IMG/VR virus record: IMGVR_UViG_3300035660_001437
DNA length: 64,000 nucleotides
Source: a virus
Lineage: Duplodnaviria > Heunggongvirae > Uroviricota > Caudoviricetes
Reading direction: 5' to 3' (one strand)
Shown here: positions 2,100 to 63,091 of the stretch, piece by piece
Numbering within the stretch: the first letter of the stretch is position 1
How the letters are laid out: each line of letters starts with the position of its first letter
The notes under the pieces: model-generated
The model's input: the letters and a program-made list of their open reading frames with translations, nothing else
The model's database searches: none
Told to the model about the DNA's origin: nothing
Translations under genes and position numbers: made by a program

Positions 2100-2626
2100 G
2101 CTTGTCCACTCTGGCTCTAGGATAGGCGAACCTGACCTAGCAGACTCTTCTTATCTCCACGACACACCTAGCACCTTGCGATGCGGTCTTTAGCTTTTCG
2201 GCGTGTTTAGAGGCGCACTCATGGACGTGGAATTCAACCCCATCCATTTACCGCTTTTTTGCATTTCGGGGCCTGCCATTCCCTACCAACGCAATAAGGT
2301 CTTGCTGATTCGCTTACTTTCCTGCCACATTGGGTGTAAATATGAATTATAAAAAAAGTTGGGCGACGGCGTGTGAGCCGTCAAATAGTCGCTTGTATCC
2401 AAATGCGCAGCCGAGTAACTGCCGAGCATGACTTGTCTACTCTTCTGGCGCTTCCAACTGCAGCTCTTTTGCCGCGTCTTCTAGAGACATTCCTGCTTTT
2501 TGCGCGAATCCTTTGAGGTATTCAAATTGACTGTCTTTAAGGTTATAGCGCTTTTTGATGTCGCCTTCTTTGCCTGCCGGTTCACGACTTTCAGCTGCTA
2601 CTTTTTTTTTTGCCAGGGCTTGGGCT

Positions 2627-3421
2627 TTACAGGCTGCGGTTTGTGAGGCGGAAAGTGTATTCAGAGGCTTTATATGGAGTGATAGTTATTAGCTGGTTAG
2701 ACCTTATTTGACGTTCTTCACCGGTTATGACGTCTCTAACGAGCAACACGTTCCCATTTCGATGGATAATTTCACAGAAATGGGTCATGCCGTCGTTTTT
2801 GTAGCTTGTGATATGCCCATTGAATAAACTCTCTTGGTCAGTTTCCTCCACGCTGTGTAATTCACGCAGCGAAGAGGGAACTCGTTTAGACTCCGTTTCC
2901 TCAACCGCTTCTCCTTCTGCCTCGGCTTCTGGCTCTGCAGCTTTCTTCTTGAAAGGCGACCACTTTTTGATTGGCTTTGCTGGCGCTGCCGCAGTTTTTG
3001 CCGGCTTTTCTGCTGCTGCTTTGACTCCGCGTCCGTATCCTTCGAGAGCATCTGGCGCGTGATTTTCTAGGTACTTTTTCATCATCCATTTGCGGCCGTG
3101 CGTAAGGTCTGTAGCATTAAGCGCTGCGAGCGGTATGCCGTGCGCCGTAAATACGTGCTCTGCTGCTTCCCCGACCTTGAAAACTCCCTCGCCGCAAACT
3201 AGACATCCATAGCCGTTATTCTCTTCGTCCCATTGAAGGTGGACGTCACCCTCTCTGACTGCAATAGGCGCTCTCGCCCTTGCTTGAGCTGGAGCTGCTG
3301 CTCTTTGTTGCGCTGGGGGTACTTGACCGCCTAAAAGACTTTGCAAAATTTCGACGACGTGCTGTAGAGCTGCTTTTTCGTTTTCTCTCATTTTCTCATT
3401 TCTCCATTTTCGGTGCTGCAT
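2627..3421 (-). CDS. hypothetical protein with C2H2-like zinc finger and Ala/Lys/Pro-rich linker
   Basis: CLVCGEG...HVFTAHG C-x2-C...H-x4-H pattern; AEKPAKTAAAPAKP low-complexity stretch; TATA-like motif about 25 nt upstream of start (3441-3448). Confidence 0.45.
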   Translation of the reverse strand: MQHRKWRNEKMRENEKAALQHVVEILQSLLGGQVPPAQQRAAAPAQARARAPIAVREGDVHLQWDEENNGYGCLVCGEGVFKVGEAAEHVFTAHGIPLAALNATDLTHGRKWMMKKYLENHAPDALEGYGRGVKAAAEKPAKTAAAPAKPIKKWSPFKKKAAEPEAEAEGEAVEETESKRVPSSLRELHSVEETDQESLFNGHITSYKNDGMTHFCEIIHRNGNVLLVRDVITGEERQIRSNQLITITPYKASEYTFRLTNRSL

Positions 3422-3453
3422 AGTGTAGCAAAACTAGTATATAAAGTTTGCTG

Positions 3454-3957
3454 CTATTTCCGCCACGAAGGCTTTTGCTCACTTGGTTGTGGTTGCTGCT
3501 CACCCTGGAAGCCGCCTTGCTCGCGAGGCATTTCTGACACATACTGCAGGAACTGAGTTAGCTCTTCTGTGTTTTCGCCTGTTACTTCTATCTTAATGAA
3601 TCCCAGGTCTATCTTAAGTGTCTTTCCTTGTATGTCTATCTGGTCTGCAGAAACTGGAATCATCGCGCTTCTTCCCCAGCCACCGAGTGTAAGTGCCGCG
3701 AACGTGCCCTCGAATTTGCTTGGGAATATCATACATATTGCACCAGAGCGTCCTTGAGCGGCTACTCTTCCACTTATCTGAGCAAAAGGTTTGCCTGTTT
3801 TTTGACTCTCTTTTATGACGAAAGTTGGCGGGCCTTGCCGTCTTTGTTGGTAGCCGCCTCTTCCGTATCCTCCGCTTGGCTGCGCCTGTGGTTGTTCTGC
3901 TGGTGGTTGCTCTGCTTGCGCAGGCTTCTTCCATGTCTGTTGCTTTTTAAAAGTCAT
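3454..3957 (-). CDS. hypothetical protein, Gln/Gly/Pro-rich termini
   Basis: 167-aa ORF preceded by AGGAG SD and by a conserved promoter motif (cacgtatataaacattact) at 4001-4019. Confidence 0.45.
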   Translation of the reverse strand: MTFKKQQTWKKPAQAEQPPAEQPQAQPSGGYGRGGYQQRRQGPPTFVIKESQKTGKPFAQISGRVAAQGRSGAICMIFPSKFEGTFAALTLGGWGRSAMIPVSADQIDIQGKTLKIDLGFIKIEVTGENTEELTQFLQYVSEMPREQGGFQGEQQPQPSEQKPSWRK

Positions 3958-3995
3958 TCTTCATTTCTCCTTTAAAACGGTACATATATAAGGAT

Positions 3996-4020
3996 ACATA
4001 CACGTATATAAACATTACTA
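3996..4020 (-). promoter_or_regulatory. archaeal BRE/TATA promoter (TTTATATA on minus strand)
   Basis: Motif AGTAATGTTTATATACGTG, near-identical to the motif upstream of the flotillin gene at about 15200; about 45 nt upstream of ATG. Confidence 0.5.
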
Positions 4021-4036
4021 TACAAAAAAAGGAGGG

Positions 4037-6085: not shown

Positions 6086-7095
6086 AATATCGACCTCCTA
6101 CATAATTGATTTGAGCGCATATATCGTTTATGATATTTTTCGCTCAAACATATTGGTAGGCCGGCTCATATATAAAGATTGCTCTTATATTGAAATAATT
6201 TCTCTGCTTGCTTCAATATAAGAGCGAGCGCTGCAAGCGCGAGCTTCAAAAAAGAAGATTTAATTCTGCCAATTTTCTCTGCTGGGAATTATCTCATTTC
6301 AATACAGGCCAAGCTTATCGCCGAACGGCTTGTTCTCTTTTTGTTTTTCTTTTCTTTTTGGCTTTGGCTTTTTACTATGGCATTCAGAGCAAAGAAGCTC
6401 TGAATTTCTTAAAGTTGTCTTGCCTCCATCAGCCCAAGGCTTTTTATGGTGGGCTATAGGTTTTACCAAAATTCAGCACCTTTTCATTTATCGAATTTTT
6501 TCCCGCAATCTTTACATTTGTTATGTTGTCTGTATCTAAGAAGCTCCTTTTGCATCGGCGTTAAAGCTCTTCTGCTGTCCCTTTTTGGCCGCGGATGTAG
6601 AGATATTGGATTTGTGCTTTTGTCTAATAAAGGATTTTTAGATAATAACTTTTTATGCGCCAACTTTCTCACTTCCGGTTAAAGCTGCCTAGGATACCAA
6701 GGGAGCCGCCCGGTTACGAAAGGCTTTGTTATCATTTGCCCGCTTCTTGAATAGCCTTTAGATTTACTTCTTTTTTCATTTGTCTTAGTTATTGTATCTC
6801 TTAGCTCAGATTTCCAAAAGAGGCCAACGTTGTTTAGCAAACTTGTGCTTCTTGCCAAGCCGCTGCTTCGATTACTTCGATTTCTCTTTTCGCTTAAATA
6901 CTCTCTCAAAGAGATACCGAAAGGCGCAGTTCTGTTTATCTTTTCCATATTTCTCAACTCTTACTGCATATATTGAATGCCAGCGACTATATAAAGATTG
7001 CACAAAAGAAATCTGCCAGAAAACTTTGCTAAAAACAGCTCACGGATAGATATGCTCCGTTCGCTCTTTAGTTTGAAAGAGAAAAAAGAGGGAGC

Positions 7096-7896: not shown

Positions 7897-7899
7897 TTT

Positions 7900-8242: not shown

Positions 8243-9751
8243 CTACTTTAAGGCCCAAGAGAATTTCTTTTGGAGATTTGCCGGATAAATCTTTGCCGCG
8301 TCCAAATCTTTGTCTTTAGCCCACTTGACGAATACTCTCGGGTCTAAATAGCTTCTCAGGCTCGTATTGAGATTATACTCTCTCAAATCACACGCAAGGT
8401 CTATTTCCTTTGCAAGTTTATCGGCCGCTTTTAAGCTGGAAGGAGTAGCTTTCGCCAAAAGCTCGCGCAGTTTCTTCTCCTTCTTTTCGATGCTCTCAAC
8501 CCAGTTCTTCGGCTGCTTGCGCTTGTGGTTCATTGCTATTGCAGCCATAAGATTCGCTCTCTTTGCCTGGTCTACTTTCTCGTAATCATGAGATTTCTTT
8601 GAAACCCTGCTCTCGTCAAGACAATCTTTTGCAACTTTAGTCGCCAAATAAGTCCTGAAAACTTTAGCAGTTAGCCCTTCCATGGCCTCTTTAAGGAAAG
8701 CGTTTACTTTTATAGAGCTTACTCCGTCAAACAAAAGGCCGCTGTCGTTCTTTTCTTTTGAAAATTCAGCCAAGTTTTCAACCACTGCCGGCGGCATCTT
8801 TACCTCTTTGAAGAAGCGCACACCGTCTTTGCCCAGAAAGTCAAAAGTTACTAAATTTTTAGGCTCTTCCAAAATAACAGCATGTTCTCGCCTGAGAGTA
8901 GTAGCGCCAATAGTATCAGCTTCGTCCTCGTCCTTTTCATCTCCCACTCTGATTCCTAAGCTTTCGATTAAATAGCAGCATGTAGCAACTTTCCTTCTCA
9001 ACGGCGCCTGCTTTTTGTCCGCGAGCGTCATTAAAATGTGCATTTTGACTCCGTTTATGTTTTTCGCGAGCTCGTTTGCCTTGTCGTACTTTTCGACTTC
9101 CTCTTCCTGCCTCATAGGCTCCGACTCTGATATCCAAACGTACTTTCTGTTATTGTCCCACTTTGCAATCCAGTAGCTTTCAGGAGCCCACTCTCTTTTA
9201 GCCTTTTCGAAGCCTTTTGGAGTCGGCGCTTCTGACGATAAATTGAGCGTAATGTCTTCAACTTTTACCGCGGGCTTCCATCTGCCTCGAAGCGGATGAT
9301 TGCTCCGGCCCATGAATATTCCGGCCGGCTCGGCCCTGTAATTTGCGAGCTCTACTTTTTTGCCGTCTACCGTTGCATAGCCGTACTTTTCTTTGTTAGC
9401 CCCCGCGATTTTCTTTCTCGCTTCAAGGTCTGCCTTGCGCTCTTCCTTTGACATGCTCTCTTTCTTTTTCTTTTGTTTTTCCACAAAGTTTTCCACGTCT
9501 CTGAAGTCAACTTCCTGCATCGTTACGCCGTTAGAAAGTCCGAAAGCTCTCGCAAAATCATAAAGAAAGTTTCTTATGAACACCTCGTCCTTCATGCAGT
9601 CCAGGTGCTTCTTTTTAATGAAATAGACAGCCATCTCTTCCTGGAGCGGCATCATCTTGACTTTTTTGCCCTTTATGGTTATAGAAAGGCCAACTGGCTC
9701 GTAGATTGGAAGAAGAATCCCAGAATGTTCTAAAGTTTTCATAAAACACAC
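8243..9751 (-). CDS. DNA topoisomerase IB (eukaryotic/poxvirus type)
   Basis: Blocks FMGRSNHPLRGRW, TFDFLGKDGVRFFKEV, EGLTAKVFRTYLAT and the active-site region NTSLRSYLDPRVFVKWAK align with human Topo I FRGRGNHPKMG / EFDFLGKDSIRYYNKV / EGLTAKVFRTYNAS / SKLNYLDPRITVAWCKK (catalytic Tyr in SxxxYLDPR). Annotated start is GTG; the ATG 9 nt downstream (MKTLEH) is the more likely start. Confidence 0.85.
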   Translation of the reverse strand: MCFMKTLEHSGILLPIYEPVGLSITIKGKKVKMMPLQEEMAVYFIKKKHLDCMKDEVFIRNFLYDFARAFGLSNGVTMQEVDFRDVENFVEKQKKKKESMSKEERKADLEARKKIAGANKEKYGYATVDGKKVELANYRAEPAGIFMGRSNHPLRGRWKPAVKVEDITLNLSSEAPTPKGFEKAKREWAPESYWIAKWDNNRKYVWISESEPMRQEEEVEKYDKANELAKNINGVKMHILMTLADKKQAPLRRKVATCCYLIESLGIRVGDEKDEDEADTIGATTLRREHAVILEEPKNLVTFDFLGKDGVRFFKEVKMPPAVVENLAEFSKEKNDSGLLFDGVSSIKVNAFLKEAMEGLTAKVFRTYLATKVAKDCLDESRVSKKSHDYEKVDQAKRANLMAAIAMNHKRKQPKNWVESIEKKEKKLRELLAKATPSSLKAADKLAKEIDLACDLREYNLNTSLRSYLDPRVFVKWAKDKDLDAAKIYPANLQKKFSWALK

Positions 9752-26518: not shown

Positions 26519-26775
26519 GTTTCATCACTTTTCTCCTGACTTGTCGCGCTCGGACGCCTCCCGACTGCGCGCTGGGATACTTCGAAAAACGCAATTACAA
26601 ACGTTATAAATAAGCCGATTATGAACTTGATTACGAACAACTGGCTAAAAATATAATACGGGTCAAATAACACTCGAAACATTTCGAAAGAAAACCACCC
26701 AATTGCAAACTCACTTGTAATCGTTAAAACCCTGATTACCTTGTAGAGCATCGAAAAAAAGAACATCCAAATCAC
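26515..26775 (-). CDS. membrane protein
   Basis: 86 aa, two TM helices. Confidence 0.35.
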   Translation of the reverse strand: MIWMFFFSMLYKVIRVLTITSEFAIGWFSFEMFRVLFDPYYIFSQLFVIKFIIGLFITFVIAFFEVSQRAVGRRPSATSQEKSDET

Positions 26776-39186: not shown

Positions 39187-39777
39187 TCACCCGAGCCCTC
39201 CGCGAATTAGTAAGACTTCTAGAATTGCCGCTTCAAACAGCAGCACGAAAATGATGAACACCGCATTCTTCGAGTCTTGGAACGCTTTGTGCAGCCGCCG
39301 TTTTGTGAGGCAGTATAAGATTTTCACCGAGTAGAACGTCGAAATAGTGTACGCTGCCATTTCCATCCAAACTATCGGGTTGAGAGCTAATTCCAGCATC
39401 GAAGCATCCAACGCGTTTAACGCTCTGCCGGTGTTCAGCAAAATTTGCCAAATAATCGGGATGCCGAGTATAGGAATCAACCCAAAAAGCGCGATAACGG
39501 CGTTGTTTCCGAATATCGACGCGACCGTAGCATTTTGAGCCATGCTCTGCACTTTCTCCTGGATTTCCTCTTTTTGTCTCTGCTCGATGGTCTCAAACTG
39601 CGGGTAGATGAGAAGAGCTACGTTGATAAGCAATAACGCTGCGAAGAGTGCTTTCGCAATTCGCGCTCGGACGTGTTTCGGCAGCGCGCTGGGAAAGCTT
39701 ATTCCAGTTTTTTTGATTTTGTTCCCAATGCGCAGCCGAGAGACGTCCGAGCATGACATTGTAATTTTCATTTTCAC
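39187..39777 (-). CDS. polytopic membrane protein
   Basis: 196 aa, about 5 TM helices; N-terminal 20 codons run through R1 repeat copies, so the true start is uncertain. Confidence 0.4.
   Translation of the reverse strand: MKMKITMSCSDVSRLRIGNKIKKTGISFPSALPKHVRARIAKALFAALLLINVALLIYPQFETIEQRQKEEIQEKVQSMAQNATVASIFGNNAVIALFGLIPILGIPIIWQILLNTGRALNALDASMLELALNPIVWMEMAAYTISTFYSVKILYCLTKRRLHKAFQDSKNAVFIIFVLLFEAAILEVLLIRGGLG
39658..39757. repeat. inverted pair of R1 dispersed repeats (copy in reverse orientation 39658-39699, forward copy 39721-39757)
   Basis: Forward GTTCCCAATGCGCAGCCGAGAGACGTCCGAGCATGAC; upstream reverse-complement variant CGCGCTCGGACGTGTTTCGGCAGCGCGCTGGGAAAGC. Confidence 0.65.
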
Positions 39778-40163: not shown

Positions 40164-40185
40164 CTCTTATTCTCTCCAAAACTGT

Positions 40186-40226
40186 GTCGCGATATCAGAC
40201 GTCTCTCGGCTCCGCGCTGGGAAAAC
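40186..40226. repeat. R1 dispersed repeat, reverse orientation
   Basis: GACGTCTCTCGGCTCCGCGCTGGGAAAAC is the reverse complement of the R1 consensus. Confidence 0.6.
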
Positions 40227-41277: not shown

Positions 41278-41783
41278 ATAGTTTGACTCCGATTTTTTGT
41301 TGATTCGCGGTTTCCGAGTCTCGGGCGCCCTCTTTCGCCGCCGGCGTTCCCAGCACGCAGCCGGGAGACGTCCGAGTGCGCATCGGCGTTCTCAGCGCGC
41401 AGCCGTGATACGGCCGAGCGCGACCGTTTGCGGCCAATGTTCAGAGCGCTAGGGTCTCGTCTTGGGGGTGTCATGCTGCTACACAGCTGTGACCGTGATT
41501 TTATTCTTCTCGCTGCGATTTGCATTAAATCTCCATTTTTCAATCTGAGATAATTCATTATTTCTATTGGAACTTCGAAATAGTAAATGGTGGCCAGGTA
41601 TTTGCCGCTCGAATGTTTGTTGTTTGGTTTATACGTTCTTTCTTCTTTTGCCGTTCTTACTCTCCCAGCCCATGATTCAAATGTTCTGGAGTCTGCAATA
41701 TCTTGAACAATAACTTCCTGTTGTTTTTGGGAGAGCGTCAACCTCGCATCACCTGAAAAGTATAATTTAAATAGAAAATACAA
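41274..41783 (-). CDS. hypothetical protein (doubtful ORF)
   Basis: TTG start directly abutting a TATA motif; C-terminal third is translation of tandem R1 repeats. Confidence 0.25.
   Translation of the reverse strand: MYFLFKLYFSGDARLTLSQKQQEVIVQDIADSRTFESWAGRVRTAKEERTYKPNNKHSSGKYLATIYYFEVPIEIMNYLRLKNGDLMQIAARRIKSRSQLCSSMTPPRRDPSALNIGRKRSRSAVSRLRAENADAHSDVSRLRAGNAGGERGRPRLGNRESTKNRSQTI
41343..41425. repeat. tandem R1 repeats (two degenerate forward copies)
   Basis: GTTCCCAGCACGCAGCCGGGAGACGTCCGAGTGCGCATC followed by GGCGTTCTCAGCGCGCAGCCGTGATACGGCCGAGCGCGA. Confidence 0.6.
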
Positions 41784-41893: not shown

Positions 41894-41993
41894 TAAATTT
41901 TTTGAACTGGAGGGCAATTGCTCCTATAGGAGTATTATAGTTTTTTTAATAATGGAGGCTTTGCTCAAGCTTTGTGAACGCAGGCGTGATGGC

Positions 41994-42029
41994 GTTCCCA
42001 ATGCGCAGCCAGGGCATGTCCGAGCATGA
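41994..42029. repeat. R1 dispersed repeat, forward
   Basis: GTTCCCAATGCGCAGCCAGGGCATGTCCGAGCATGA. Confidence 0.6.
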
Positions 42030-42128
42030 AATGGAAGCTAAGAAAGCTTTATATATGAGGTCGTCTTCCTTATAGAAGCCGGAGAAGGTCGATGGAAACA
42101 TCACTTCTTTAAATTTGCATTGGCGCAC

Positions 42129-42160
42129 TCGAGCGTCTCTCGGCTACGTGCTGGGATAGC
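42129..42160. repeat. R1 dispersed repeat, reverse orientation
   Basis: GAGCGTCTCTCGGCTACGTGCTGGGATAG. Confidence 0.55.
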
Positions 42161-42172
42161 GTTGTTGCAATA

Positions 42173-42499
42173 TTGACGTTCAAAAGATTTTACAAATGTT
42201 CTGCTGCTTGCCCGACCTTCTCCAACCTAAAAAAGGTGGTTAGAAAAAACATGGCTGGTGATGCAGTTCAAAACAACCTCGTGCTGATTATAGTGCCTCT
42301 TTTCGCTCTGTTGGCTCTGGCAATCATATTCGTGGTGATTCCAATCTTCGCGGGTATGGTCGGCTCAGGCTCAGCAAGCGTTGGACTTGTCAGCATGAGC
42401 AACACAATGGCAAGTTTCGCGCCCATTTACGGTATCGGGCTTGCCATAGGATTGCTTGTTATGTTCTTCGGTTTGGCAGCTTGGTTTGCGGGCAGATAG
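42173..42499 (+). CDS. small membrane protein (paralog of 15213..15506)
   Basis: Two TM helices; shared IYGIGL(A/V)(I/L)GL motif. Confidence 0.4.
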   Translation: MTFKRFYKCSAACPTFSNLKKVVRKNMAGDAVQNNLVLIIVPLFALLALAIIFVVIPIFAGMVGSGSASVGLVSMSNTMASFAPIYGIGLAIGLLVMFFGLAAWFAGR

Positions 42500-42580
42500 A
42501 CCACCTCTGATTAACTGCCGGCATACAAGCTGGTAAATCGAGGGCATTGCAAGCATCCGCCATACAAAGGAGAGAGAAAG

Positions 42581-47709: not shown

Positions 47710-47734
47710 GTTTAACTGCAGGTGTTATAAATGG

Positions 47735-48238
47735 ATGAAATTACTTCGCAAAGGGGAGTGCTTTACCATAGACGATGACACAACATCTTTCTTCCTCATA
47801 TTTTTCGCGATTTGGGCCGTGATTTTAGTTGTTGCTTCGGCGTACTCCGGCGCGCACGAGCTTTCAAAGCCGCAAGCGGGTGTAATGCTGCTCCAGTCGC
47901 CAGATTTGAACCAGAAGCAAATACTGATAAATCCGATGTTGATAAGAGGGCAATTTTCAACAGGCTCAATTGATTGCGTGTTCTACATTTACAACGAAAA
48001 GACTTACAGCCAGAACGTAACGATTGGATGGTGGCTTGGATTTCAGATGGTAGAGGAGGCAAAATACGTTGACTTCTATTGCTCTGCCGGTAAGAATTTT
48101 ATGATTGCTAACAAAACGCTTTTGGAGTGCTACGTAAAGTTCTCAGTAGCGGCCAGCGCACCGCAAAACGTCAAAGACAAACTTGCAGATGGAAACCCTG
48201 GGATTTATTTAGTGGTAACCGCAAATGTGGAGGAGTAA
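47735..48238 (+). CDS. membrane-anchored hypothetical protein
   Basis: 167 aa with N-terminal TM helix. Confidence 0.45.
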   Translation: MKLLRKGECFTIDDDTTSFFLIFFAIWAVILVVASAYSGAHELSKPQAGVMLLQSPDLNQKQILINPMLIRGQFSTGSIDCVFYIYNEKTYSQNVTIGWWLGFQMVEEAKYVDFYCSAGKNFMIANKTLLECYVKFSVAASAPQNVKDKLADGNPGIYLVVTANVEE

Positions 48239-48500
48239 AATGACAACTGTTCAAACTGTTATTGTGATAATTAAATTCAAGAGCGAAGTCGACGTGTCGG
48301 CATTTAGAAGACCTGCTCCGCCGGGGTTATTCGGCAGCAGAAGACAGAGCATGGGCGTGAACATCATGGAAACTCAAACTATTCCGCTCGACAGGCCGAT
48401 TATTATAATACCGAACGGCGAGGCTGATAGCGTCGAAATAATACCGATAACAGACCAAACTTTGATTCACGGCAAAAATATAAAGAGGCTTTTGAAATGA
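48225..48500 (+). CDS. hypothetical protein
   Basis: 91-aa ORF overlapping neighbours by ATGA. Confidence 0.35.
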   Translation: MWRSKMTTVQTVIVIIKFKSEVDVSAFRRPAPPGLFGSRRQSMGVNIMETQTIPLDRPIIIIPNGEADSVEIIPITDQTLIHGKNIKRLLK

Positions 48501-54588: not shown

Positions 54589-54858
54589 ATGCGTGCGCAT
54601 ACGTTAAACCGAGGACTTATTATGGTATGGCGCTGCAATAAATGCGGGTTAGAGCTAAAGCCTGAAGATAAGATGCCAACAAAGATGCTTGAGAGGTTGC
54701 TGAAAGACTCGCGCTGCCCTAAAGACATCAAGCGTGCTTTCAAATACGGCATGGTTTGTCCGGAGTGCGGGAGAAAGCTGAGGATTATTGGCATTTACCT
54801 GTGCCCGAACTGTGAGGCAATATGTTTAGAAGGAGCGGAGCATATTGAAGCCTTTTGA
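54589..54858 (+). CDS. zinc-ribbon protein
   Basis: CNKCG...CPECG...CPNCE. Confidence 0.4.
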   Translation: MRAHTLNRGLIMVWRCNKCGLELKPEDKMPTKMLERLLKDSRCPKDIKRAFKYGMVCPECGRKLRIIGIYLCPNCEAICLEGAEHIEAF

Positions 54859-55663
54859 AGAGCTTTCAATAAGCGGAAAATGGGCCATAGAACATCCTGG
54901 GTATTCGAGAGAATACCGCAGAACGCAGAAGTTTAGAGAACGGCAAAGAAAATATCACAAGTGGTATTTTAGACATCTCGAATCCGCAAGGAAGCGCGGC
55001 GAAAAGTGGCGAAGGGAGCATCCCGAGTACAATAAAGAATATTTCGCAAGGTCGGAAGTTAAAGATAAGATGAGAGAATATGTGAGAAAATGGCAGAAGG
55101 ATTTGAAAGAAGAAGTCTTTTCTCATTACTCAAGCGGCGCGCCGGAATGTGCCTGCTGCGGAGAAATGAGAATTGAATTCCTGACCATTGACCACATTGG
55201 AGGCGGAGGGAATAGGCATAGAAAAGAAATAGGTGGCAGCTCGACGATTTATTTATGGCTCAAGCGAAACAATTATCCGCCAGGATTTAGAGTTCTCTGT
55301 TTTAACTGCAACTTCCTAGTATTCAAACAGAAAGTGAGATGCGCAAAATATCCTCGCCATCAAGGGCGGAGGATTAATCTTAGGCTGGAGGTCTTGTATC
55401 ATTACTCTAACGGTGCATCTGTCTGTAAGTGCTGCGGCGAGGGCAATATTGACGTCTTGACTATTCACCATGTTGGAGGAGGCGGGCTAAAACATCTTGA
55501 AGAAATAGGCGGAGATATTTGCGGCTGGCTCAAACGCAACAATTACCCGCCGGGCTTCCAGGTGCTGTGCTGGAACTGCAATGAGGCAAAAGCCCATTAC
55601 GGCTTCTGCCCGCACGAAATTGAGAGAGCAAGGGAAGAGTTTAAGAAAATTTGTATCGTCTAG
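54845..55663 (+). CDS. tandem HNH-motif endonuclease-like protein
   Basis: Two copies of CxCCGE-x5-(F/V)LTI(D/H)H(I/V)GGGG...YPPGF(R/Q)VLC(F/W)NCN. Confidence 0.55.
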   Translation: MKPFEELSISGKWAIEHPGYSREYRRTQKFRERQRKYHKWYFRHLESARKRGEKWRREHPEYNKEYFARSEVKDKMREYVRKWQKDLKEEVFSHYSSGAPECACCGEMRIEFLTIDHIGGGGNRHRKEIGGSSTIYLWLKRNNYPPGFRVLCFNCNFLVFKQKVRCAKYPRHQGRRINLRLEVLYHYSNGASVCKCCGEGNIDVLTIHHVGGGGLKHLEEIGGDICGWLKRNNYPPGFQVLCWNCNEAKAHYGFCPHEIERAREEFKKICIV

Positions 55664-56367: not shown

Positions 56368-56736
56368 ATGGCAGTGGGCTTTAGAAAAAGAGTGAGAGGC
56401 ACTGCCAGGCAGATAGGAAAAGCTTTTCCTGTTTTTACAAAGAGGAAACTGCCCACGAAATTCGGAGGCAAAAGAAGATTGAAGCCGAAAGACACGATTG
56501 TTCTGCAATTTGAATACCCGGACGAGGCTGAAGCTTTCAGAGATGCTTACTATGCAGTAGGCGCGGTGTCTGACTTCCCAGCGCCCGAAGATGAAAAGGT
56601 GGTTAAAAACACAGTCATTCTCAGGTTCGACAAAGAAATCATAGAAGACAATCCAGACCTTGCAGACGACACGCTTGAATACCTCAAAAGAGCAAGTTTC
56701 TTTACGGTCAAGCCGAAAAAAGTGTGGACGGCCTAG
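56368..56736 (+). CDS. basic-leader paralog family member A
   Basis: N-terminus MAVGFRKRVRGTARQIGKAFPVFTKRKLP; SD GGAGGG upstream; C-terminus ends KPKKVWTA. Confidence 0.55.
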   Translation: MAVGFRKRVRGTARQIGKAFPVFTKRKLPTKFGGKRRLKPKDTIVLQFEYPDEAEAFRDAYYAVGAVSDFPAPEDEKVVKNTVILRFDKEIIEDNPDLADDTLEYLKRASFFTVKPKKVWTA

Positions 56737-57057
56737 GTGGTTGACATGGCAATCAAAGCAAAAAACAAGAGCTGCATAGCCGGCGCGCTGAGAGGCAAAG
56801 TCGGCTGGCCACTTGTCAGCAAGCGAAGGAGAGGCGGAAAAAAGCCGAAATATTGGATTCAAGAAGCAATCGGTGTCAAGGGCTCGCTGAGAGAAGAAGT
56901 CATGCGGAGGAAGGGAAGAGCCGGTTTTGACTCGCGCGGCAGGATAAAAGCGAGTGTCATAGAAGAAATCATACGCAAAGACGGCTTCAAAAAGCAGGCA
57001 GTCCTGGCAAGAACGCTCCGCGGGCTGAAAAAGCGAGGTAAAAGGAGGGAGAAGTAA
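56737..57057 (+). CDS. small basic protein
   Basis: 106 aa, K/R-rich. Confidence 0.4.
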   Translation: MVDMAIKAKNKSCIAGALRGKVGWPLVSKRRRGGKKPKYWIQEAIGVKGSLREEVMRRKGRAGFDSRGRIKASVIEEIIRKDGFKKQAVLARTLRGLKKRGKRREK

Positions 57058-57059
57058 AA

Positions 57060-57302
57060 ATGCCGAATCCCGTAAGAGCAATGTTTTGGGGACTGCGGAA
57101 ACAGGGGTACTCAGCTGCAGAAGCAGAAAAGCGAACTAGAGAATATTTTTCGGCGAAAAAAGCACGCAAAAGTGATAAGAAAATGCCGCAAAGGAGAATG
57201 GGAAAACCGAGGACAGATGCAGAAAGGAGAGCTAGGCACATGGCTATATATGGTACTGAAAAGTTACCGCCTAGAGGAACAGGGCTGCGAAGGAGAGGCT
57301 GA
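57060..57302 (+). CDS. small basic protein (MPN...)
   Basis: 80 aa; SD AGGAGGG upstream. Confidence 0.4.
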   Translation: MPNPVRAMFWGLRKQGYSAAEAEKRTREYFSAKKARKSDKKMPQRRMGKPRTDAERRARHMAIYGTEKLPPRGTGLRRRG

Positions 57303-57593
57303 AAGTGCCGAAAACAAACATAAAAGCAAAACATATCTTCATAAGAAACAAAAAGACAGGCACGTCAAAATGGGTGACGAAAGCGCAGTGGAACAAAATC
57401 AAAAAGACTCCCCCGAAAAAGAGGCCATGGAGAAGAGTTCGAGCGTTTTGAGGCGAAAGTAAATGCCAAAAAGAAATAAAAGCAGAAAATACGTGCACGT
57501 CGTAACTAAAGAAACTCCAGTTCCAACGCATCTTTTCCTGACCAAAAAAGAATACAATAAGCTCTCCAGAAAAGCACCAAAAAGATTCCAAAA

Positions 57594-57842
57594 GTGGAGA
57601 TACTAATGACAATCGAGTTTTACAAGAGAAAAAAGCAAGCGAAGAACTGGGCTAAGCAAGTGAAAAGATTTGCAAGAAGAGACATAAAAGTCGCCAGAGT
57701 CAGAGTTGCAAATGTAGGTTTTTTGAATAACGCCGGCGGAAGAAAGATAGGCGGAAGTGGCAAGTTCAAACCAGGAGAAGTGGGCTACGTTCTAGCTTTC
57801 AGAGGCATGAGCGAGGCAGGATTGAGGAGGGCGCGAAAGTAA
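57594..57842 (+). CDS. small basic protein
   Basis: 82 aa. Confidence 0.4.
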   Translation: MEILMTIEFYKRKKQAKNWAKQVKRFARRDIKVARVRVANVGFLNNAGGRKIGGSGKFKPGEVGYVLAFRGMSEAGLRRARK

Positions 57843-58002
57843 AATGCCATGGACAACTAGGAAAATGAAGCTCAACAAGAGGGGCGACAAGCTGGGCACA
57901 TTAGAAGGGATATATTCTCTGAGAACCGTGAAATGGAACCCGAAATCTGGAATACTCAAGCTTCGGTATTTCAGGCCAAAGAAAAAGCGAGGGAGAAAAT
58001 AG

Positions 58003-58203
58003 ATGCCGTACAAAATCAGGTTCTATCCAAAAGGCGTGAAGAAACGAAGCCTCCTTAGAAAGATGGCCAAGCCAGGCGCGATAAGCGTATCCAGTGAAGC
58101 GACTTGGCCATCAAAGCAAAAAGCTAAAAATTCAAAACTGTACAAAACTGCATTCTGGTCTGGTTACAGCCCGAGAGTTGAAAAAGTGAGGCGAAAGAAA
58201 TGA
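58003..58203 (+). CDS. small basic protein (MPYK...)
   Basis: 66 aa. Confidence 0.4.
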   Translation: MPYKIRFYPKGVKKRSLLRKMAKPGAISVSSEATWPSKQKAKNSKLYKTAFWSGYSPRVEKVRRKK

Positions 58204-58388
58204 CATACAGACTGAGAGTTGCAACGAGAATATCCAAAAAGACCGGCAGACCCGCCGGCCCCAGAATGACCAGCGTCAAATATCGAAAACTAAAATCAGC
58301 CAGGATAGACGCAAGAGCTATCGCAAATCCATACGATATCGTAAAAGTTGACAAAAAAGGAAAAGTCGTAAAGAGGTATTACAGATGA
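58200..58388 (+). CDS. small basic protein
   Basis: 62 aa; ATGA overlaps both sides. Confidence 0.4.
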   Translation: MTYRLRVATRISKKTGRPAGPRMTSVKYRKLKSARIDARAIANPYDIVKVDKKGKVVKRYYR

Positions 58389-58951
58389 GCAAAATCGGTT
58401 TCAGAACGCGCAAGCGTGGCACTCCTAAACAAATAGGGAAGAAATTTCCGGTGCTGGAGAAAAAGCCGCTGCCTAAACTGAGAGTTGGCGGCAAGACTAT
58501 CATGAAGGTAAAAGAGGGCGATAGATTCGTTGCAGCCAGAGACGTTCCGATAAGAAACACCGAGCTCAGATGGAGAGACCCCGTAGGTCTGATGGAGAAA
58601 CTGCATTCGGGAAAATTCATAGTCGACAAGGTGATTGGAGACGAAGTTTGGCTTGCAGACGCTGATTGGGAGCCAACCGGCAGAATCACTTTTCACTCTT
58701 CAAAGCACGGCCACATCATATTCAAGAAAGACCTGAAGAAATTGAGGCGATGGAGAAAATTGCGAGATGCCGGCAGTTTAGGAATAATGACACCGCCTTC
58801 TCAAGAGACATATCGCAGAAGAGGTACTGCAGCAGGCGTTGATATTCCAGTAGAGCCTCGCAAGGAGAGGCTCGAAGAAATAGCTGAAAGAACGAGACGA
58901 AGAATGGCGTCGAAGCCAGAAAGAATGAGAAAAAAGAGAGGATTTGTATGA
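58385..58951 (+). CDS. basic-leader paralog family member B
   Basis: MSKIGFRTRKRGTPKQIGKKFPVLEKKPLPKL. Confidence 0.55.
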   Translation: MSKIGFRTRKRGTPKQIGKKFPVLEKKPLPKLRVGGKTIMKVKEGDRFVAARDVPIRNTELRWRDPVGLMEKLHSGKFIVDKVIGDEVWLADADWEPTGRITFHSSKHGHIIFKKDLKKLRRWRKLRDAGSLGIMTPPSQETYRRRGTAAGVDIPVEPRKERLEEIAERTRRRMASKPERMRKKRGFV

Positions 58952-59355
58952 AGTTCAAAAAGCGAATTAGAGGGACGCCAAAACAAATAGGAAAGCCGTT
59001 TCCTATTGGCGAAAAGAGAAAGCTGCCGAAGCTGAGAATGGCACGAAGAAAACTAACGCCTTATGACTTGCCATACGAGAAAGACATATCAATTGGGCCG
59101 TACACGATTCACTGGCGCTATCACGAATACGCCGATGACTACGCAGTGAGCTTGTGGTTAGGCGACAAGTGCATAGATTGGCGTATGCCAAAAACCAAGA
59201 GAGACACAATAAAGGCAATCAAAGAGTTCAGAAAAAGAGCTTCTGAAGAGTTGGGGAAGTCAGAAAGGGCAACCGAATGGTACGCCAGGCGCTATCCAAT
59301 GATGTTCAGAGGCGGCGGCAAGCGCGCCGCGTACTACGGCGGAAAAACAAGATGA
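58948..59355 (+). CDS. basic-leader paralog family member C
   Basis: MKFKKRIRGTPKQIGKPFPIGEKRKLPKL. Confidence 0.55.
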   Translation: MKFKKRIRGTPKQIGKPFPIGEKRKLPKLRMARRKLTPYDLPYEKDISIGPYTIHWRYHEYADDYAVSLWLGDKCIDWRMPKTKRDTIKAIKEFRKRASEELGKSERATEWYARRYPMMFRGGGKRAAYYGGKTR

Positions 59356-59369
59356 GAGGGATGCTGTAA

Positions 59370-59576
59370 ATGCCAAAAACAAGGCGAAAACTGATGGGAA
59401 CTAAAAAGCCTTATGGTTATGTTGTTAGTGGCTCAAGAGTTAAGCATGGAGTTTATTGTAAGACCCTGACTGCGGCAAAAAAGGAAATGAATAGGCAAAT
59501 GTTCAGGCTTCGCAGCAAGGAATCTGGAATTAGAGAAGTTTCAAAAGAAGAATGGCTAAAGCGGAGGAAAAAGTAA
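59370..59576 (+). CDS. small basic protein (MPKTRRK...)
   Basis: 68 aa. Confidence 0.4.
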   Translation: MPKTRRKLMGTKKPYGYVVSGSRVKHGVYCKTLTAAKKEMNRQMFRLRSKESGIREVSKEEWLKRRKK

Positions 59577-59655
59577 TGCGCGAGAAATGGAAAAAGAAGC
59601 GGCAGCGAAGAGAGAAAAAGAAGAGAGAGAAAAGAAAGGAGAGATATAAATAAAA

Positions 59656-60303
59656 GTGCAAGAACTAAAGCCATACGACGAGCTTTCTCAAGGCGGAAAA
59701 TGGGCTAGAGACCATCCAGAATACAAAGAACACAACAAAAAACATTTAAAAGAATACAAAAGAGAATACCGCCTAAACAATAAACTCCGGGTTTTAGAGC
59801 ATTACTCCAATGGTGCTATGGCATGCGCAGTTTGCGGAAAAAAGAACATTAACTTTCTGACGGTAGACCACATAAATGGCGGAGGATGCCGGCATAGGAG
59901 AGAAGTAAATGCCGATATGTTGTATTGGCTCGAACGCAAATACAGGACAACCGGCATTTGGCCTAAAGGATACCAAGTGCTGTGCGCCAACCATAATTTC
60001 ATAAAGAAATTTGAAGAGAACGGTTATGCACCAAATAACCAAACTTTGGCAATAGGAAGGTTGATAATCGAAATACGCCATTTGTTGGGAGAAAAATGCG
60101 AAATTTGTGGGTTTGAAGACGCAAGAGCGCTACACATAGACCACGTTAATGGCGGTGGCTTGGAAGAGCTAAGAAGCTTCAGCGGCACTTATGCCTATTA
60201 TAAAAACATTCATGACAAAATCCTGGCCGGCTCAAGAGATTATCAGCTTTTGTGCGCGAATCATAATCTTGAAAAGGAATTAAGCAAAAGAGAGGCTAGG
60301 TGA
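59656..60303 (+). CDS. tandem HNH-motif endonuclease-like protein
   Basis: CAVCGKKNINFLTVDHINGGG...YQVLCANHNF and CEICGFEDARALHIDHVNGGG...YQLLCANHNL. Confidence 0.55.
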   Translation: MQELKPYDELSQGGKWARDHPEYKEHNKKHLKEYKREYRLNNKLRVLEHYSNGAMACAVCGKKNINFLTVDHINGGGCRHRREVNADMLYWLERKYRTTGIWPKGYQVLCANHNFIKKFEENGYAPNNQTLAIGRLIIEIRHLLGEKCEICGFEDARALHIDHVNGGGLEELRSFSGTYAYYKNIHDKILAGSRDYQLLCANHNLEKELSKREAR

Positions 60304-60354
60304 AAAAACATTGAGCTTAACGGAAAACAGAGAGGTACAATAGAGGTATAAGTA

Positions 60355-60810
60355 ATGCCAAAAACAGCAAAATACCCCGTTGAAAAAAGAGGGGCAAGCT
60401 ACCAGCGCTATCTCGGAAAACTGCGCAGGAGAAGCAAGTGGAAAAAGCGGGCGCGCAGGCCAAAAAGAGAGAAAGCCGCTCCTATACTCGTCGTTGAGAA
60501 GAAAACCAAGAGAGTTCTAGTGAAGAAAGAGAAATTGCCAACCAGTATGCGAGAGCTGGCAGCTGCTGTGTCAAAGCCGGCAAAGCATAAAGATTTCAAA
60601 AAGTGGAGACTAGAAAAGCCAAAACCGATTTCTGTCGTCAAAAGAGCTACCATGAAAGAAATCGCGACAATGAGAAGAGCGATGGGCATATCTGCAAGCA
60701 AAGCGAGGAGACTTCTCAGGATGGCTCAAAGAACCGCGCAGCCGGAATACAAACCAAAAAGAAAGAAGAAAATATGGCTACCCAAAACAATTCAGAGAGG
60801 ACTGAGATAA
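60355..60810 (+). CDS. basic protein (MPKTAK...)
   Basis: 151 aa, about 35% K/R. Confidence 0.45.
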   Translation: MPKTAKYPVEKRGASYQRYLGKLRRRSKWKKRARRPKREKAAPILVVEKKTKRVLVKKEKLPTSMRELAAAVSKPAKHKDFKKWRLEKPKPISVVKRATMKEIATMRRAMGISASKARRLLRMAQRTAQPEYKPKRKKKIWLPKTIQRGLR

Positions 60811-61047
60811 ATGCCGACATTTCTCCAGGAAACTTTTAGCTTCGCTCCTCACTCCGTTCGGAGAAAGCGTAAAAGAGCGTATACCAGAAAAAAGTCGCGG
60901 GTTAAAAGGAGAGCAAAGACAACTCGAAAGCGCAGCGGGTATGCTTTTGGAAAAGAAGGCGAAGCAATTATTAGGACAACAGGCGCGCTCATGGCGACAG
61001 GCGCAGCGATAGGAACAATGGGTCTTATAGGCAAACTCGGTAAATGA
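60811..61047 (+). CDS. small basic protein with C-terminal Gly/Ala-rich hydrophobic segment
   Basis: 78 aa. Confidence 0.4.
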   Translation: MPTFLQETFSFAPHSVRRKRKRAYTRKKSRVKRRAKTTRKRSGYAFGKEGEAIIRTTGALMATGAAIGTMGLIGKLGK

Positions 61048-61058
61048 GGTGGAAATAG

Positions 61059-61280
61059 TTGCCAATAGGCAAAAAGCTGCCTCGATACAAGGTGATTCGC
61101 TGCAATGCGACCAAAGAGAGGCATTTAATCACAAGAATTGACAGAGACAAATATCCTCGCAGGCACGTTCCTGTTGACGTCATTTTTAAAGCCATTCGCA
61201 GGCACTACAAAAAATACCATCCAGTTTTGTTCAAAAGAATGATTAGGAAAGCGCAATATACGAAGAGGAAGCGCAAATAA
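61059..61280 (+). CDS. small basic protein (MPIGKK...)
   Basis: 73 aa. Confidence 0.4.
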   Translation: MPIGKKLPRYKVIRCNATKERHLITRIDRDKYPRRHVPVDVIFKAIRRHYKKYHPVLFKRMIRKAQYTKRKRK

Positions 61281-61405
61281 TGGGAAGGCAAGAATTGACT
61301 AAGAGGCAAAAGCGAATATCGTGGAAGAAGCGATATTATGAACTTCTTAGTGAGCTTCTTAAACAAAGCAAACCGAGGAAGAAAAAGCGATAGGGGAGCG
61401 CGCTC

Positions 61406-61708
61406 ATGCCGCGAAGAAGACAAAAGCCAAAAGTATCCATTAAAAAGAGATTGGTAAATGGCAGCATAAAGTTCACGTGGACTAACGATGGTTGGTTAGC
61501 TGTTGTCGCAAAGCCTATCCCTCGCTCTACGTTGTGGGCGCTAAGCAAACGCGGCAAAAAGCGAGGCATGAAATTTTATAATCTATATTCAAAAGACCCG
61601 CGCGAGCCAAAATATTTCACCATTCCGTTCAGCGATGAAGAGCGGAAAAATATAGCTAGCGGTCTCGACCCGCACGGGTTGCCATTTGGCAGGAGAAAAA
61701 AGAAATGA
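61406..61708 (+). CDS. small basic protein (MPRRRQK...)
   Basis: 100 aa. Confidence 0.4.
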   Translation: MPRRRQKPKVSIKKRLVNGSIKFTWTNDGWLAVVAKPIPRSTLWALSKRGKKRGMKFYNLYSKDPREPKYFTIPFSDEERKNIASGLDPHGLPFGRRKKK

Positions 61709-61902
61709 GTCTTAAAACAATAAGAAGAACAGTCAAAAAATCAATTACCGACGAGAAGCAAGCTTCTCCTCACTACAGAAAACTGGCATCCAAGATGAGC
61801 AAAGCCGGCCTTAAGAAAGAGGCCAAAACAGTTCGAGGAATAGCGAAAGTTGAAACGCAGCACAGGAAAAAGCTGAAGAAGATTTTGAGGAAACTGAAAT
61901 GA
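61705..61902 (+). CDS. small basic protein
   Basis: 65 aa. Confidence 0.4.
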   Translation: MSLKTIRRTVKKSITDEKQASPHYRKLASKMSKAGLKKEAKTVRGIAKVETQHRKKLKKILRKLK

Positions 61903-62453
61903 AATGGCTCAAACGCAAGCGCGGAACAGATAGACAGAAAGGAAAGCCGTTTCCGGTAAGAGGCAAAAGAAAGCTTCCTGAGATTGTTTACCCGATAAAG
62001 TACGACAAGAAAAAAGCCGTAAACAGTAAGCGTGCGTTTTATCGCTTCTTCGGCCATCTAACTCGCTCAGCATACGAGAGATTGAAAGATAACAAATTGC
62101 CTGGAAATGACGCCTATTTTCTTCTCGATGATAACACAATCTTTGCGGGAGAACTTCCTGAGAACAAGAAAGCGTGGCGTGGTTTAATCAAAAAAGCCGT
62201 AAAAGCTGAAAAACCTCTAGCTTACGGCGTAATTACGCCGATATGGATTTCTCCTCCAACAAAAGGGGTGTTGCCAAGCCGCCATCCGTTCAGGAAAGAA
62301 GGTGTGATTATAACGGTGTATTCGCCGCGCGAGCAGAAGGCGTCTTTCGTGGAATACGAATTTATTACTCCCAAGCTAATAGAAGTGAAGAAGCCAGTTG
62401 TTTGGGAGAAGTTCGAAGACAGTCTCGTCGGGAACGTTTATGGGGTGAAATGA
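61899..62453 (+). CDS. basic-leader paralog family member D
   Basis: MKWLKRKRGTDRQKGKPFPVRGKRKLPEI. Confidence 0.55.
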   Translation: MKWLKRKRGTDRQKGKPFPVRGKRKLPEIVYPIKYDKKKAVNSKRAFYRFFGHLTRSAYERLKDNKLPGNDAYFLLDDNTIFAGELPENKKAWRGLIKKAVKAEKPLAYGVITPIWISPPTKGVLPSRHPFRKEGVIITVYSPREQKASFVEYEFITPKLIEVKKPVVWEKFEDSLVGNVYGVK

Positions 62454-63091
62454 ATTTGAAGTGGAAGAAAAGGGTTAGAGGCACTCGCAGGCAAATAGGG
62501 AAACCGTTTCCTGTTGGCGAGAAAAAGCGGCTGCCCAGATTCGAAGTGCCGTCGACAAAAGAGTGGCCGCGCATAAAGCTCTATTACAATTACATCGAGC
62601 AGGTCGGCCAGAAGATGCTTGCGGAGGGCTTCGACCCAAAAACAATCGAGAAAATCCTGTCTATGGCGTCTAAAAAGAAAGTGCGAAACTTCAATGAGAT
62701 GGTGATGGACATACAGCTTCCGCTGGCAAAAGACAAGAGAGTAGACATCGACACACTCGATACTTTTATTGGAAGATTGATAAAATATGATGTGAGAGCC
62801 GGCACTCTTTCTGGAGGCAAACGCAAGCCGACCAGCGTCGCAATTACGTACCGCGACGAGTTCGGAATCGAGCGAAAAAAGAGGGTGAAAGTGAAAGATA
62901 CGCCAGAGTTTTACCAGCAAGTGAGAGCAAAAGGGTATGAAATTCACGACGTATCGGGCAGAAGAGGCAGTTCCCAATGCGCAGCCGAGAGACGTCCGAG
63001 CATGACAGGCGGGAAGTTCCTTGAAAAATTGGCATGGATGTTGAGACATCCAGGAGACCCTATGCCAGAGTGGATTCCTGTTGGCGATTAG
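62450..63091 (+). CDS. basic-leader paralog family member E (contains an R1 repeat copy in frame near the C-terminus)
   Basis: MNLKWKKRVRGTRRQIGKPFPVGEKKRLPRF; ATGA overlap with D; R1 repeat at 62970-63006 is translated as SSQCAAERRPSMTG. Confidence 0.5.
   Translation: MNLKWKKRVRGTRRQIGKPFPVGEKKRLPRFEVPSTKEWPRIKLYYNYIEQVGQKMLAEGFDPKTIEKILSMASKKKVRNFNEMVMDIQLPLAKDKRVDIDTLDTFIGRLIKYDVRAGTLSGGKRKPTSVAITYRDEFGIERKKRVKVKDTPEFYQQVRAKGYEIHDVSGRRGSSQCAAERRPSMTGGKFLEKLAWMLRHPGDPMPEWIPVGD
62970..63006. repeat. R1 dispersed repeat, forward, inside a CDS
   Basis: GTTCCCAATGCGCAGCCGAGAGACGTCCGAGCATGAC, identical to the copy at 39721-39757. Confidence 0.65.

Follow-up and report, generated by a model that had tools for sequence, protein, structure and literature searches.

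What is the 37-nt sequence that recurs in both orientations across a 64,000-nt stretch of viral DNA (IMG/VR record IMGVR_UViG_3300035660_001437, classified in the Caudoviricetes), and how were its copies placed? The repeat, R1, crowds into 39.6-42.2 kb of this stretch, which we call the window, and one further copy lies within a protein-coding sequence (CDS). We find that R1 is probably a mobile insertion element that duplicates about 4 nt of its target, a reading to which we assign a probability of roughly 0.75. [quoted passage not shown]

Ten R1 copies in both orientations are present in the window, where none is expected by chance. An nhmmer profile built from the copies, a repeat finder, half-site patterns and a covariance model all agree on ten places, at search positions 2397 (+), 26541 (-), 39658 (-), 39721 (+), 40195 (-), 41346 (+), 41388 (+), 41994 (+), 42123 (-) and 62970 (+). 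The exact 37-mer occurs twice (39721-39757 and 62970-63006), with 0 occurrences expected in shuffled sequences, and each half-site pattern, allowing up to three mismatches, finds ten places compared with 0.7-1.2 expected, a number reached in 0 of 100 shuffles. Intervals between copies are uneven, ranging from 42 nt to 37 kb, with seven of the ten copies inside 39.6-42.2 kb. The copies occupy several frames on both strands, and for most of them a stop codon is no more than about 150 nt away. The nine copies listed in the initial annotation are real, with coordinates good to a few bases, and a tenth (26543-26578) had been overlooked. Its description of the copies as unevenly spaced and mutually divergent is confirmed, as is the in-frame position of the 62970 copy within the CDS of a paralog; its statement that R1 is not a CRISPR array is borne out by the irregular spacing and by the lack of a match to the Rfam CRISPR-DR families.

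Relatives of the window were retrieved by exact-protein look-ups and comprise four sequence sets. The sequence in Logan SRR11721899 is the same as that of the window. Strain S (Joint Genome Institute, JGI, 3300035179) includes locus L123, 97% identical to window positions 41755-48484, and locus L128, with an ortholog of the gene at 62450-63091 (89% protein identity). Genome B is JGI 3300032020 contig Ga0315296_10000115 (78,982 nt; an identical assembly is in ENA as ERZ27247703), and its loci L125, L126 and L129 are collinear with the window, with 80-97% identity in blocks. The fourth set is a distant relative, L124, whose large protein is 37% identical and which has no R1 copy.

When the window is aligned with genome B, three R1 copies appear as precise insertions of 40-44 nt, each consisting of a 36-40-nt element plus a 4-nt target-site duplication (TSD; possibly 5 nt at 40186). 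At 62970, genome B reads AGAAGG-GGC-GGAAAG and the window reads AGAAG-AGGC-[AGTTCCCAATGCGCAGCCGAGAGACGTCCGAGCATGAC]-AGGC-GGGAAG, a difference of 42 nt. This copy (62969..63006, plus strand; 38 nt with the TSD AGGC at 62965-62968 and 63007-63010) lies inside CDS 62450-63091 and forms an in-frame insertion of 14 amino acids (GSSQCAAERRPSMT) that is present in strain S and missing from the genome B ortholog. The 26 C-terminal residues that follow it (GGKFLEKLAWMLRHPGEPMPEWIPVGD) are conserved in the window, strain S and genome B, and thus the protein stays in frame. At 26541, CCTG-ATTT-CGTAAA in genome B corresponds to CCTG-ACTT-[36 nt]-ACTT-CGAAAA in the window, a 40-nt insertion in which the copy (26543..26578, minus strand, 36 nt) is bounded by the TSD ACTT (26539-26542 and 26579-26582) near the 3' end of the open reading frame (ORF) 26515-26775. 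At 40195, genome B has CCAAAACTGTAATAC and the window CCAAA-ACTGT-[39 nt]-ACTGT-AATAC, a 44-nt insertion. Here the copy (40186..40225, minus strand) carries a small internal insertion, is flanked by the TSD (A)CTGT at 40181-40185 and 40225-40229, and provides the stop codon of an HNH-like ORF of 360 amino acids (40195-41277). The protein of this ORF ends in ...YYSFPSAEPRDV and a stop in the window versus ...YYSF-GVESGGE... in genome B.

The initial annotation proposed a check for target-site duplications, and these were found both at the three filled and empty sites and in the wider family: exact 4-nt direct repeats flank seven of the ten copies (TTGT, AAGT, TTGT, ACAG, CGGC, ATGG and AGGC), compared with 7.2% of randomly chosen sites of equal geometry (binomial P ~1e-6). 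The duplicated 4 nt are identical to the single copy in genome B at 40186 and differ from it by one substitution each at 26543 and 62969. Because the flanking repeats vary from site to site and, at the three sites with an empty counterpart, correspond to a single copy in genome B, they are duplications of the target rather than element sequence. The targets have no evident sequence preference. R1 inserts as a unit of approximately 36-40 nt, in either orientation, duplicating 4 nt, and its surviving copies stand in places that a gene-dense genome tolerates: between genes, in the final codons of a gene or, in a single case, in frame within one.

The aligned copies give the consensus (N)GT-TCCCA-RYRC-GCA-GCCG-AGAGA-CGTC-CGA-GYRY-GAC. 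R1 is therefore an imperfect palindrome in which (N)GT-TCCCA is followed by a four-base-pair outer stem, GCA, a four-base-pair inner stem, an AGAGA loop, the inner stem strand, CGA, the outer stem strand and GAC. The element as a whole has nine pairable positions and the ends GT...AC, the left end having four additional nucleotides (TCCC), and the arms are not fixed but covary. The outer stem exists in four complementary versions (GCGC/GCGC, ATGC/GCAT, GCAC/GTGC and GTGC/GCAC), and 10 of 14 copies have a conserved C.T mismatch in the inner stem. Across the 14 distinct copies of the window and two relatives, the nine proposed pairs reach 88.9% pairing; 16 changes are double-sided, and the covariation score is 0.40. 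This level is matched in 0 of 500 shuffles, slid-partner controls pair at 15-46%, and restricting the test to the ten window copies leaves the result unchanged. The alignment thus indicates that intrastrand pairing has been maintained in R1, and it is covariation, not folding energy, that constitutes the evidence for pairing. The 3' end (GAC) is sharp, and the 5' end varies by 0-3 nt before TCCCA. The inverted pair at 39658-39757, which the initial annotation had suggested could form a long hairpin, folds to -50 kcal/mol (z = -5.9).

Other identities for this palindrome were considered and set aside. Several copies can be read as a coding motif on the minus strand (SxSDVSRLRxGN), but the R1 consensus is GC-rich and open in almost every frame, the copies differ in frame and orientation, and the nucleotides of the stem vary in a correlated way that changes the encoded amino acids. 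An archaeal bulge-helix-bulge splice motif has two 3-nt bulges on opposite strands with a four-base-pair helix between them. Inspection of the alignment shows that the internal loop of R1 is a symmetric 3x3 loop (GCA/CGA) with no staggered bulges. On inspection, its geometry does not fit a kink-turn either. ARAGORN reported no tRNA or credible tRNA-like element.

The remaining copies show the same anatomy in varied settings. The copy at 2397..2432 (plus strand; ATCCAAATGC...GCATGAC, with an ATGC/GCAT stem) has TTGT at 2393-2396 and 2433-2436; on the coding (minus) strand a TAG stop codon lies 4 nt upstream, the gap being the ACAA duplication. Two copies form a head-to-head pair. The one at 39660..39696 (minus strand) has a GCGC/GCGC stem, as does the copy at 26543, and lacks a recognisable TSD; genome B has this copy too, with a GTGC/GCAC stem. 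Its partner at 39721..39758 (plus strand) is found downstream of gene 39774-40163, 17 nt from its stop codon, and has TTGT...TTGT flanks with the register shifted by 1-2 nt. The tandem pair begins with 41346..41383 (plus strand; GCAC/GTGC stem; CGGC at 41342-41345 and 41384-41387), which is identical in genome B, and continues with 41388..41424 (plus strand; GCGC/GCGC stem), which is found in genome B with two differences and has the best-paired inner stem. In the window this second stretch is called as the GC-rich tail of ORF 41274-41783; it has no gene call in genome B. In the divergent intergenic region, the copy at 41993..42030 (plus strand; ATGC/GCAT stem; ATGG at 41989-41992 and 42031-42034) is present in strain S locus L123 and missing from genome B. 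The most degenerate copy, 42122..42158 (minus strand; GCAC/GTGC stem), has flanks ACGC/ATGC that match at three of four positions; strain S has it with five differences in 37 nt, and genome B lacks it.

R1 copies have come and gone between these genomes. Four window copies are missing from genome B (26541, 40195, 41994 and 42123), and genome B has copies that the window lacks at L126 17550 and 14015. At the site of the former, the window has instead a 540-nt block with a small gene. Around 41994 and 42123, genome B keeps the promoter core between the copies, with unrelated sequence in the flanking stretches. The tandem copies at 41346 and 41388 show 0 and 2 differences from genome B, and the head-to-head copies at 39658 and 39721 differ from theirs by 35% and 27% within flanks that are approximately 92% identical, each stem remaining complementary. 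Six of the ten differences between the 39721 orthologs are accounted for by three compensated outer-stem positions; either another member of the family replaced or converted this copy, or pairing was selected in place. The 39721 ortholog in genome B is furthermore split by a 39-nt insertion with GCACG flanks, which is itself another small GC-rich palindromic repeat with a second copy at L126 18948-18983. The copies at 39721 and 62970, 23 kb apart, are identical over 38 nt, which points to recent activity. As judged from these alignments, R1 has been active since the lineages of the window and genome B diverged, with at least one very recent move.

These data bear on two proposals of the initial annotation. 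Its description of R1 as MITE- or REP-like is upheld by the filled and empty sites, the 4-nt TSDs, the differing presence of copies among relatives and the identity of distant copies. Its view of three genes as cassettes, each set between inverted copies, is not supported: genome B keeps the gene for a 129-amino-acid protein and the ortholog of the 360-amino-acid ORF in place without the copies at 40195, 41994 and 42123, so that the alternating arrangement is a by-product of independent insertions at gene ends.

How such a short element might move can be sketched from its structure. R1 is taken to be non-autonomous because neither a transposase, integrase or reverse-transcriptase family nor solo half-sites were found in the window. 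The mobilising enzyme would accordingly act in trans and could be a host transposase or a nuclease of the virus. Since the outer stem stays complementary while its sequence changes, R1 is probably processed in folded, single-stranded form, the likeliest such form being a DNA hairpin that would be joined into a staggered break and then copied. Geometry leans in the same direction: a rigid 37-bp duplex is far below the persistence length of DNA, so its ends cannot reach phosphates 4 bp apart, while the ends of a hairpin adjoin. The duplex geometry and the maintained complementarity together favour a single-stranded hairpin intermediate, but we regard this step, taken alone, as a hypothesis that is less likely than not. 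It is also possible that a host transposase moves R1 by a classical double-strand MITE mechanism; 4-bp duplications occur in IS5-, IS701- and IS1380-type elements. The boldest version, which we consider unlikely, is that R1 is the smallest transposable element so far seen to make TSDs, its hairpin being ligated into a 4-nt staggered break and then copied, and that the enzyme is a virus-encoded nuclease so far unrecognised as a transposase, such as an HNH-like paralog or the product of another unannotated ORF.

Several observations weigh against mobility, or against this account of it. No transposase, integrase or reverse-transcriptase family was found by Pfam among approximately 110 window ORFs or in the gene tables of genome B, and no solo half-sites marking a full-length parent element were found in the window; a search for a parent insertion sequence with R1 half-sites yielded none. 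Three copies have no clear TSD, and the distance from the 5' TSD to TCCCA varies by 0-3 nt, which leaves the exact 5' end uncertain. The copy specific to genome B at L126 14015 is accompanied by approximately 30 extra nucleotides that resemble the adjacent target; it is not a clean insertion and was not counted. Single copies are not unusually stable (z from -1.9 to +0.7), and the hairpin-intermediate step rests on covariation and geometry. Finally, the comparison covers three related genomes, each seen in part.

A different reading of the covariation is that R1 is mainly a selected structured signal at gene boundaries, such as a hairpin in RNA that serves 3'-end formation, stability or processing, or a site bound by a viral protein, and that its spread is secondary and due to recombination. 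The covarying stem with conserved loop and internal-loop bases, the compensated differences between orthologous copies, the proximity of most copies to stop codons and the strong fold of the 39.7-kb inverted pair would all be expected of such a signal. A second palindromic family, R2, stands at a fixed distance upstream of ribosome-binding sites, which implies that this genome uses gene-adjacent hairpins. However, counting from the copy strands and gene layout, orientation to transcription is mixed: four copies are sense, five are antisense and one (41994) is upstream of both divergent promoters. R1 is also dispensable, as genome B lacks four copies at otherwise conserved sites; one copy lies in frame within a conserved CDS; and the TSDs show that transposition-like insertion, not descent with selection, placed the copies. 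We therefore consider a primary signalling role improbable, although a function gained after insertion (exaptation) is possible. The crowding of seven copies beside the switch in GC skew and gene strand near 42 kb, together with the short AT-rich promoter region between inverted copies and a perfect palindrome with 13-bp arms close by (41863-41893), could instead mark a replication origin with R1 copies as iterons or origin-recognition sites. This is very unlikely, given that genome B lacks both copies around the divergent region while keeping the promoter core, that other copies lie 15-40 kb away and one of them within a CDS, that TSDs and empty sites show insertion, and that no Orc1/Cdc6-type initiator gene was seen in the window.

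Solitary CRISPR repeat units occur in viruses, and on inspection R1 has a suitable length (approximately 37 nt), a central hairpin and a 5' GTT. R1 copies might thus be units that mimic host repeats, acting as RNA anti-CRISPRs or persisting as remnants of mini-arrays. Nevertheless, there is no array or regular spacing, the ten copies are divergent and in both orientations, they were inserted with 4-nt TSDs at sites that include CDSs, and the tight R1 pattern met no host-like contigs in the JGI metagenome collection. Rfam searches over the cluster gave no R1 match at the gathering threshold and none that was relevant at E <= 10, CRISPR-repeat families (CRISPR-DR) included. An origin in CRISPR repeats is consequently most improbable. 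The possibility with the least to recommend it is that the copies are repeat-induced assembly errors, or that the window is a chimera joined through the repeat; the initial annotation named misassembly as grounds for rejecting R1. One Logan contig (SRR11721899) does terminate within copy 39721, an outcome to be expected when assembly runs into repeated sequence, and the identity of copies 39721 and 62970 would allow an assembler to join sequences there. Against this, the same copies with the same flanks lie inside contigs of independent assemblies from three or four samples, among them Logan SRR11721899, JGI 3300035179 and JGI 3300032020 (ENA ERZ27247703), and the block order across 25-49 kb is the same in genome B and the window. 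R1 copies are not assembly artefacts.

With insertion as the preferred reading, R1 can be compared with known kinds of small mobile DNA. MITEs are usually roughly 50-500 bp in length. At 36-40 nt, R1 falls well below this range and contains little beyond two arms and a 5-nt loop; moreover, its arms covary, unlike fixed transposase-binding sites, neither the window ORFs nor the gene tables of genome B yielded a parent insertion sequence or transposase, and it lives in a virus-like genome. In other respects the resemblance is close. MITEs are non-coding and multicopy, with inverted-repeat arms, short TSDs and either orientation; their presence varies between close relatives, they are mobilised in trans, and they can form in-frame fusions with host ORFs (PMC10969869). 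R1 is likewise small, non-coding, multicopy, TSD-making and polymorphic between relatives. Rickettsia palindromic elements (RPEs) are selfish palindromes that stand in frame within protein genes without destroying them (PMC10969869), which the in-frame insertion at 62970 recalls. However, RPEs are approximately 100-150 bp (three to four times the length of R1), bacterial and nearly all in frame, whereas only one of the ten R1 copies is a clean in-frame internal insertion and others alter or extend gene ends.

The similarity to REPs lies in the size of approximately 35 nt, the imperfect palindrome, the conserved unpaired 5' head, the compensated stem variation, and the occurrence of both as singles, inverted pairs and tandems. 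REPs are not known to make a TSD; they have a GTAG-type head and go together with a Y1 (HUH) RAYT gene. In contrast, R1 makes 4-nt TSDs, has a TTCCCA head and enters CDSs, and no Y1_Tnp-type (RAYT) family was detected among the window ORFs. Very small dispersed repeats of Cyanobacteria are mobile and form hairpins of 21-27 nt that may be tandem, nested or inside genes. They share with R1 its extreme smallness, tandem arrangement, nesting and presence in genes, but differ from it in sequence, host and size. The hairpin is also a feature of IS200/IS605-type and integron attC-type sites, where an HUH or tyrosine recombinase recognises it as a single strand and insertion goes to a specific short target with no TSD. 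These were rejected as identities for R1, which has TSDs of varied sequence in a window where no such enzyme family was detected.

Window genes run on the minus strand to approximately 42 kb and on the plus strand beyond, with a GC-skew switch at the same place. They encode a family-B DNA polymerase, a topoisomerase IB, a clamp loader resembling the RFC small subunit, a Dam-type methylase, ThyX, and radical-SAM and glycosyltransferase proteins; many other ORFs have no annotation. When the polymerase is compared with the phage collection, its best matches come from haloarchaeal tailed viruses (23% identity). IMG/VR contained no match to the R1 pattern and no relatives of the polymerase or of a 325-amino-acid protein, and a 1386-amino-acid protein has one distant homolog among 5.8 billion proteins. 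The phage and plasmid collections gave no R1 match, a loose R1 pattern met only single chance matches in high-GC bacteria among genome contigs, and the tight pattern found only genome B in the JGI metagenomes. We read the window as part of a genome of roughly 75 kb whose owner is an archaeal virus, or an element like one, to which nothing described so far is closely related. Repeated motifs of approximately 25 nt (AAAAG-TTTAAATA and TTTATATA) occur on the coding (minus) strand just upstream of genes (families D7, D9, D10, D14 and D16, with members at 13297, 18570, 35847 and 41783 and at 3994, 9773, 10878, 15192, 6160 and 6979). To judge by their sequences, they look like archaeal BRE/TATA promoters and would support an archaeal host.

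Other genes add to this picture of the virus group. The topoisomerase IB (8243-9751, minus strand) is a full-length eukaryote-type enzyme with N-terminal DNA-binding, catalytic-core and C-terminal domains (E 1e-60); it is unusual for a prokaryote virus and matches no PHROG or NCBIfam family. In genome B, a 102-amino-acid protein (L129 4961-5269) has a weak precomputed match to Fusello_VP2_Capsid, so the virus group may be spindle-shaped. Between strain S (L123 6775-15212) and the window (48492 onward), the 97% identity ends at approximately 48.5 kb, beyond which strain S has other genes for glycosyltransferases and lipid head groups (GT4, CDP-alcohol phosphatidyltransferase and cytidylyltransferase), a change that looks like a swapped surface-modification module. 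The genome B ortholog of the 1386-amino-acid protein (L126 1168-5664, corresponding to window 43549-47709) is called as 1206 amino acids, and directly after it comes a 282-amino-acid LAGLIDADG gene; a second LAGLIDADG gene is at L129 2506-2982. Such an arrangement suggests insertions of the homing-endonuclease or intein type, which are missing from the window.

R1 is accompanied by other small palindromes. The GC-rich family R2 (AGAGCGAGCGAGACATATCTGCTCGCGAGCT) has copies at 35352-35395 (+), 37954-37998 (+), 41172-41218 (+) and 7031-7071 (-), the divergent 7031 copy having a compensated stem (GAACGGA/TCCGTG). Three of the four copies (all except 35352) are directly upstream of CTCTTTAGGAG on the coding strand. 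R2 stands, for example, just upstream of the ribosome-binding site of gene 37189-37944 and may be a hairpin of the 5' untranslated region or of an operator; one copy lies within the predicted N-terminal part of the 360-amino-acid ORF. The third GC-rich repeat (GAGCGGATGCTCCGGCCTCCTCGCTTCGCTCGGAGC), the one that splits an R1 copy in genome B, occurs at L126 10040-10078 and 18948-18983, with shorter matches at L126 10857-10874, 14131-14149 and 18848-18866. The copy in R1, with its GCACG flanks, lengthens a SpoIIM-like protein by 13 residues at its predicted N-terminus. In the window, no copy of this repeat was found at full length. The palindrome at 41863-41893 (CATCACTGTTTAA-TTTTT-TTAAACAGTGATG) is perfect and lies in the divergent intergenic region exactly at the switch in GC skew and in gene strand. 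It may be an origin or operator element, and strain S keeps it with a one-base change in the T run.

HNH-like paralogs are encoded at 40195-41277 (-), 54845-55663 (+) and 59656-60303 (+), and at L126 8706-9464 in genome B. The three in the window share a Cys-rich DH...N...N core (HYSNG..C..C....FLTIDHI.GGGN.H....LC.NCN), which is duplicated within two of them and has marginal similarity to HNH and Endonuclease VII (E 0.01-0.05). The label "HNH gene" of the initial annotation is thus weakly supported: one paralog matches Endonuclease_7/HNH weakly at these values, but the protein of 40195-41277, to which the label was applied, has no Pfam match. In the genome B ortholog of that gene, the core has been lost by an internal deletion. 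By eye, the first approximately 95 residues of the 41274-41783 (-) product are AbrB/SpoVT-like (YLATIYYFEVPIEIMNYLRLKNGDLMQIAARRI), with no Pfam match, and the remaining approximately 75 residues are a GC-rich low-complexity tail derived from the tandem R1 copies. Because the same DNA follows a different gene in genome B and has no gene call there, the most probable origin of this tail is either an artefact of annotation or read-through of recent date. Farther along, the six adjacent genes at 56368-63693 (+) share at the N-terminus a conserved basic motif, (K/R)RxRGTxRQIGKxFPVxEKKxLP, and are unrelated in the rest of their sequence; the 56-64 kb region encodes small, very K/R-rich proteins and has an AT skew of up to +0.39.

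R1 is a recognisable kind of selfish DNA. What is unusual is its extreme smallness, the combination of a TSD with a covarying hairpin, and its viral host. An element that seems to be no more than a hairpin with short tails and nonetheless makes TSDs is hard to square with standard double-strand transposition; if an R1 hairpin is indeed ligated into a staggered break and copied, this would be a route of transposition unlike both DDE cut-and-paste and HUH single-strand transposition, and a 37-nt oligonucleotide offers a simple substrate for finding the enzyme. Repeats of this sort also break assemblies and create GC-rich ORF extensions that should not be taken as real protein tails. For the virus, R1 remodels proteins, having added 14 residues to one, supplied a new stop codon to another and contributed part of the predicted N-terminus of a third.

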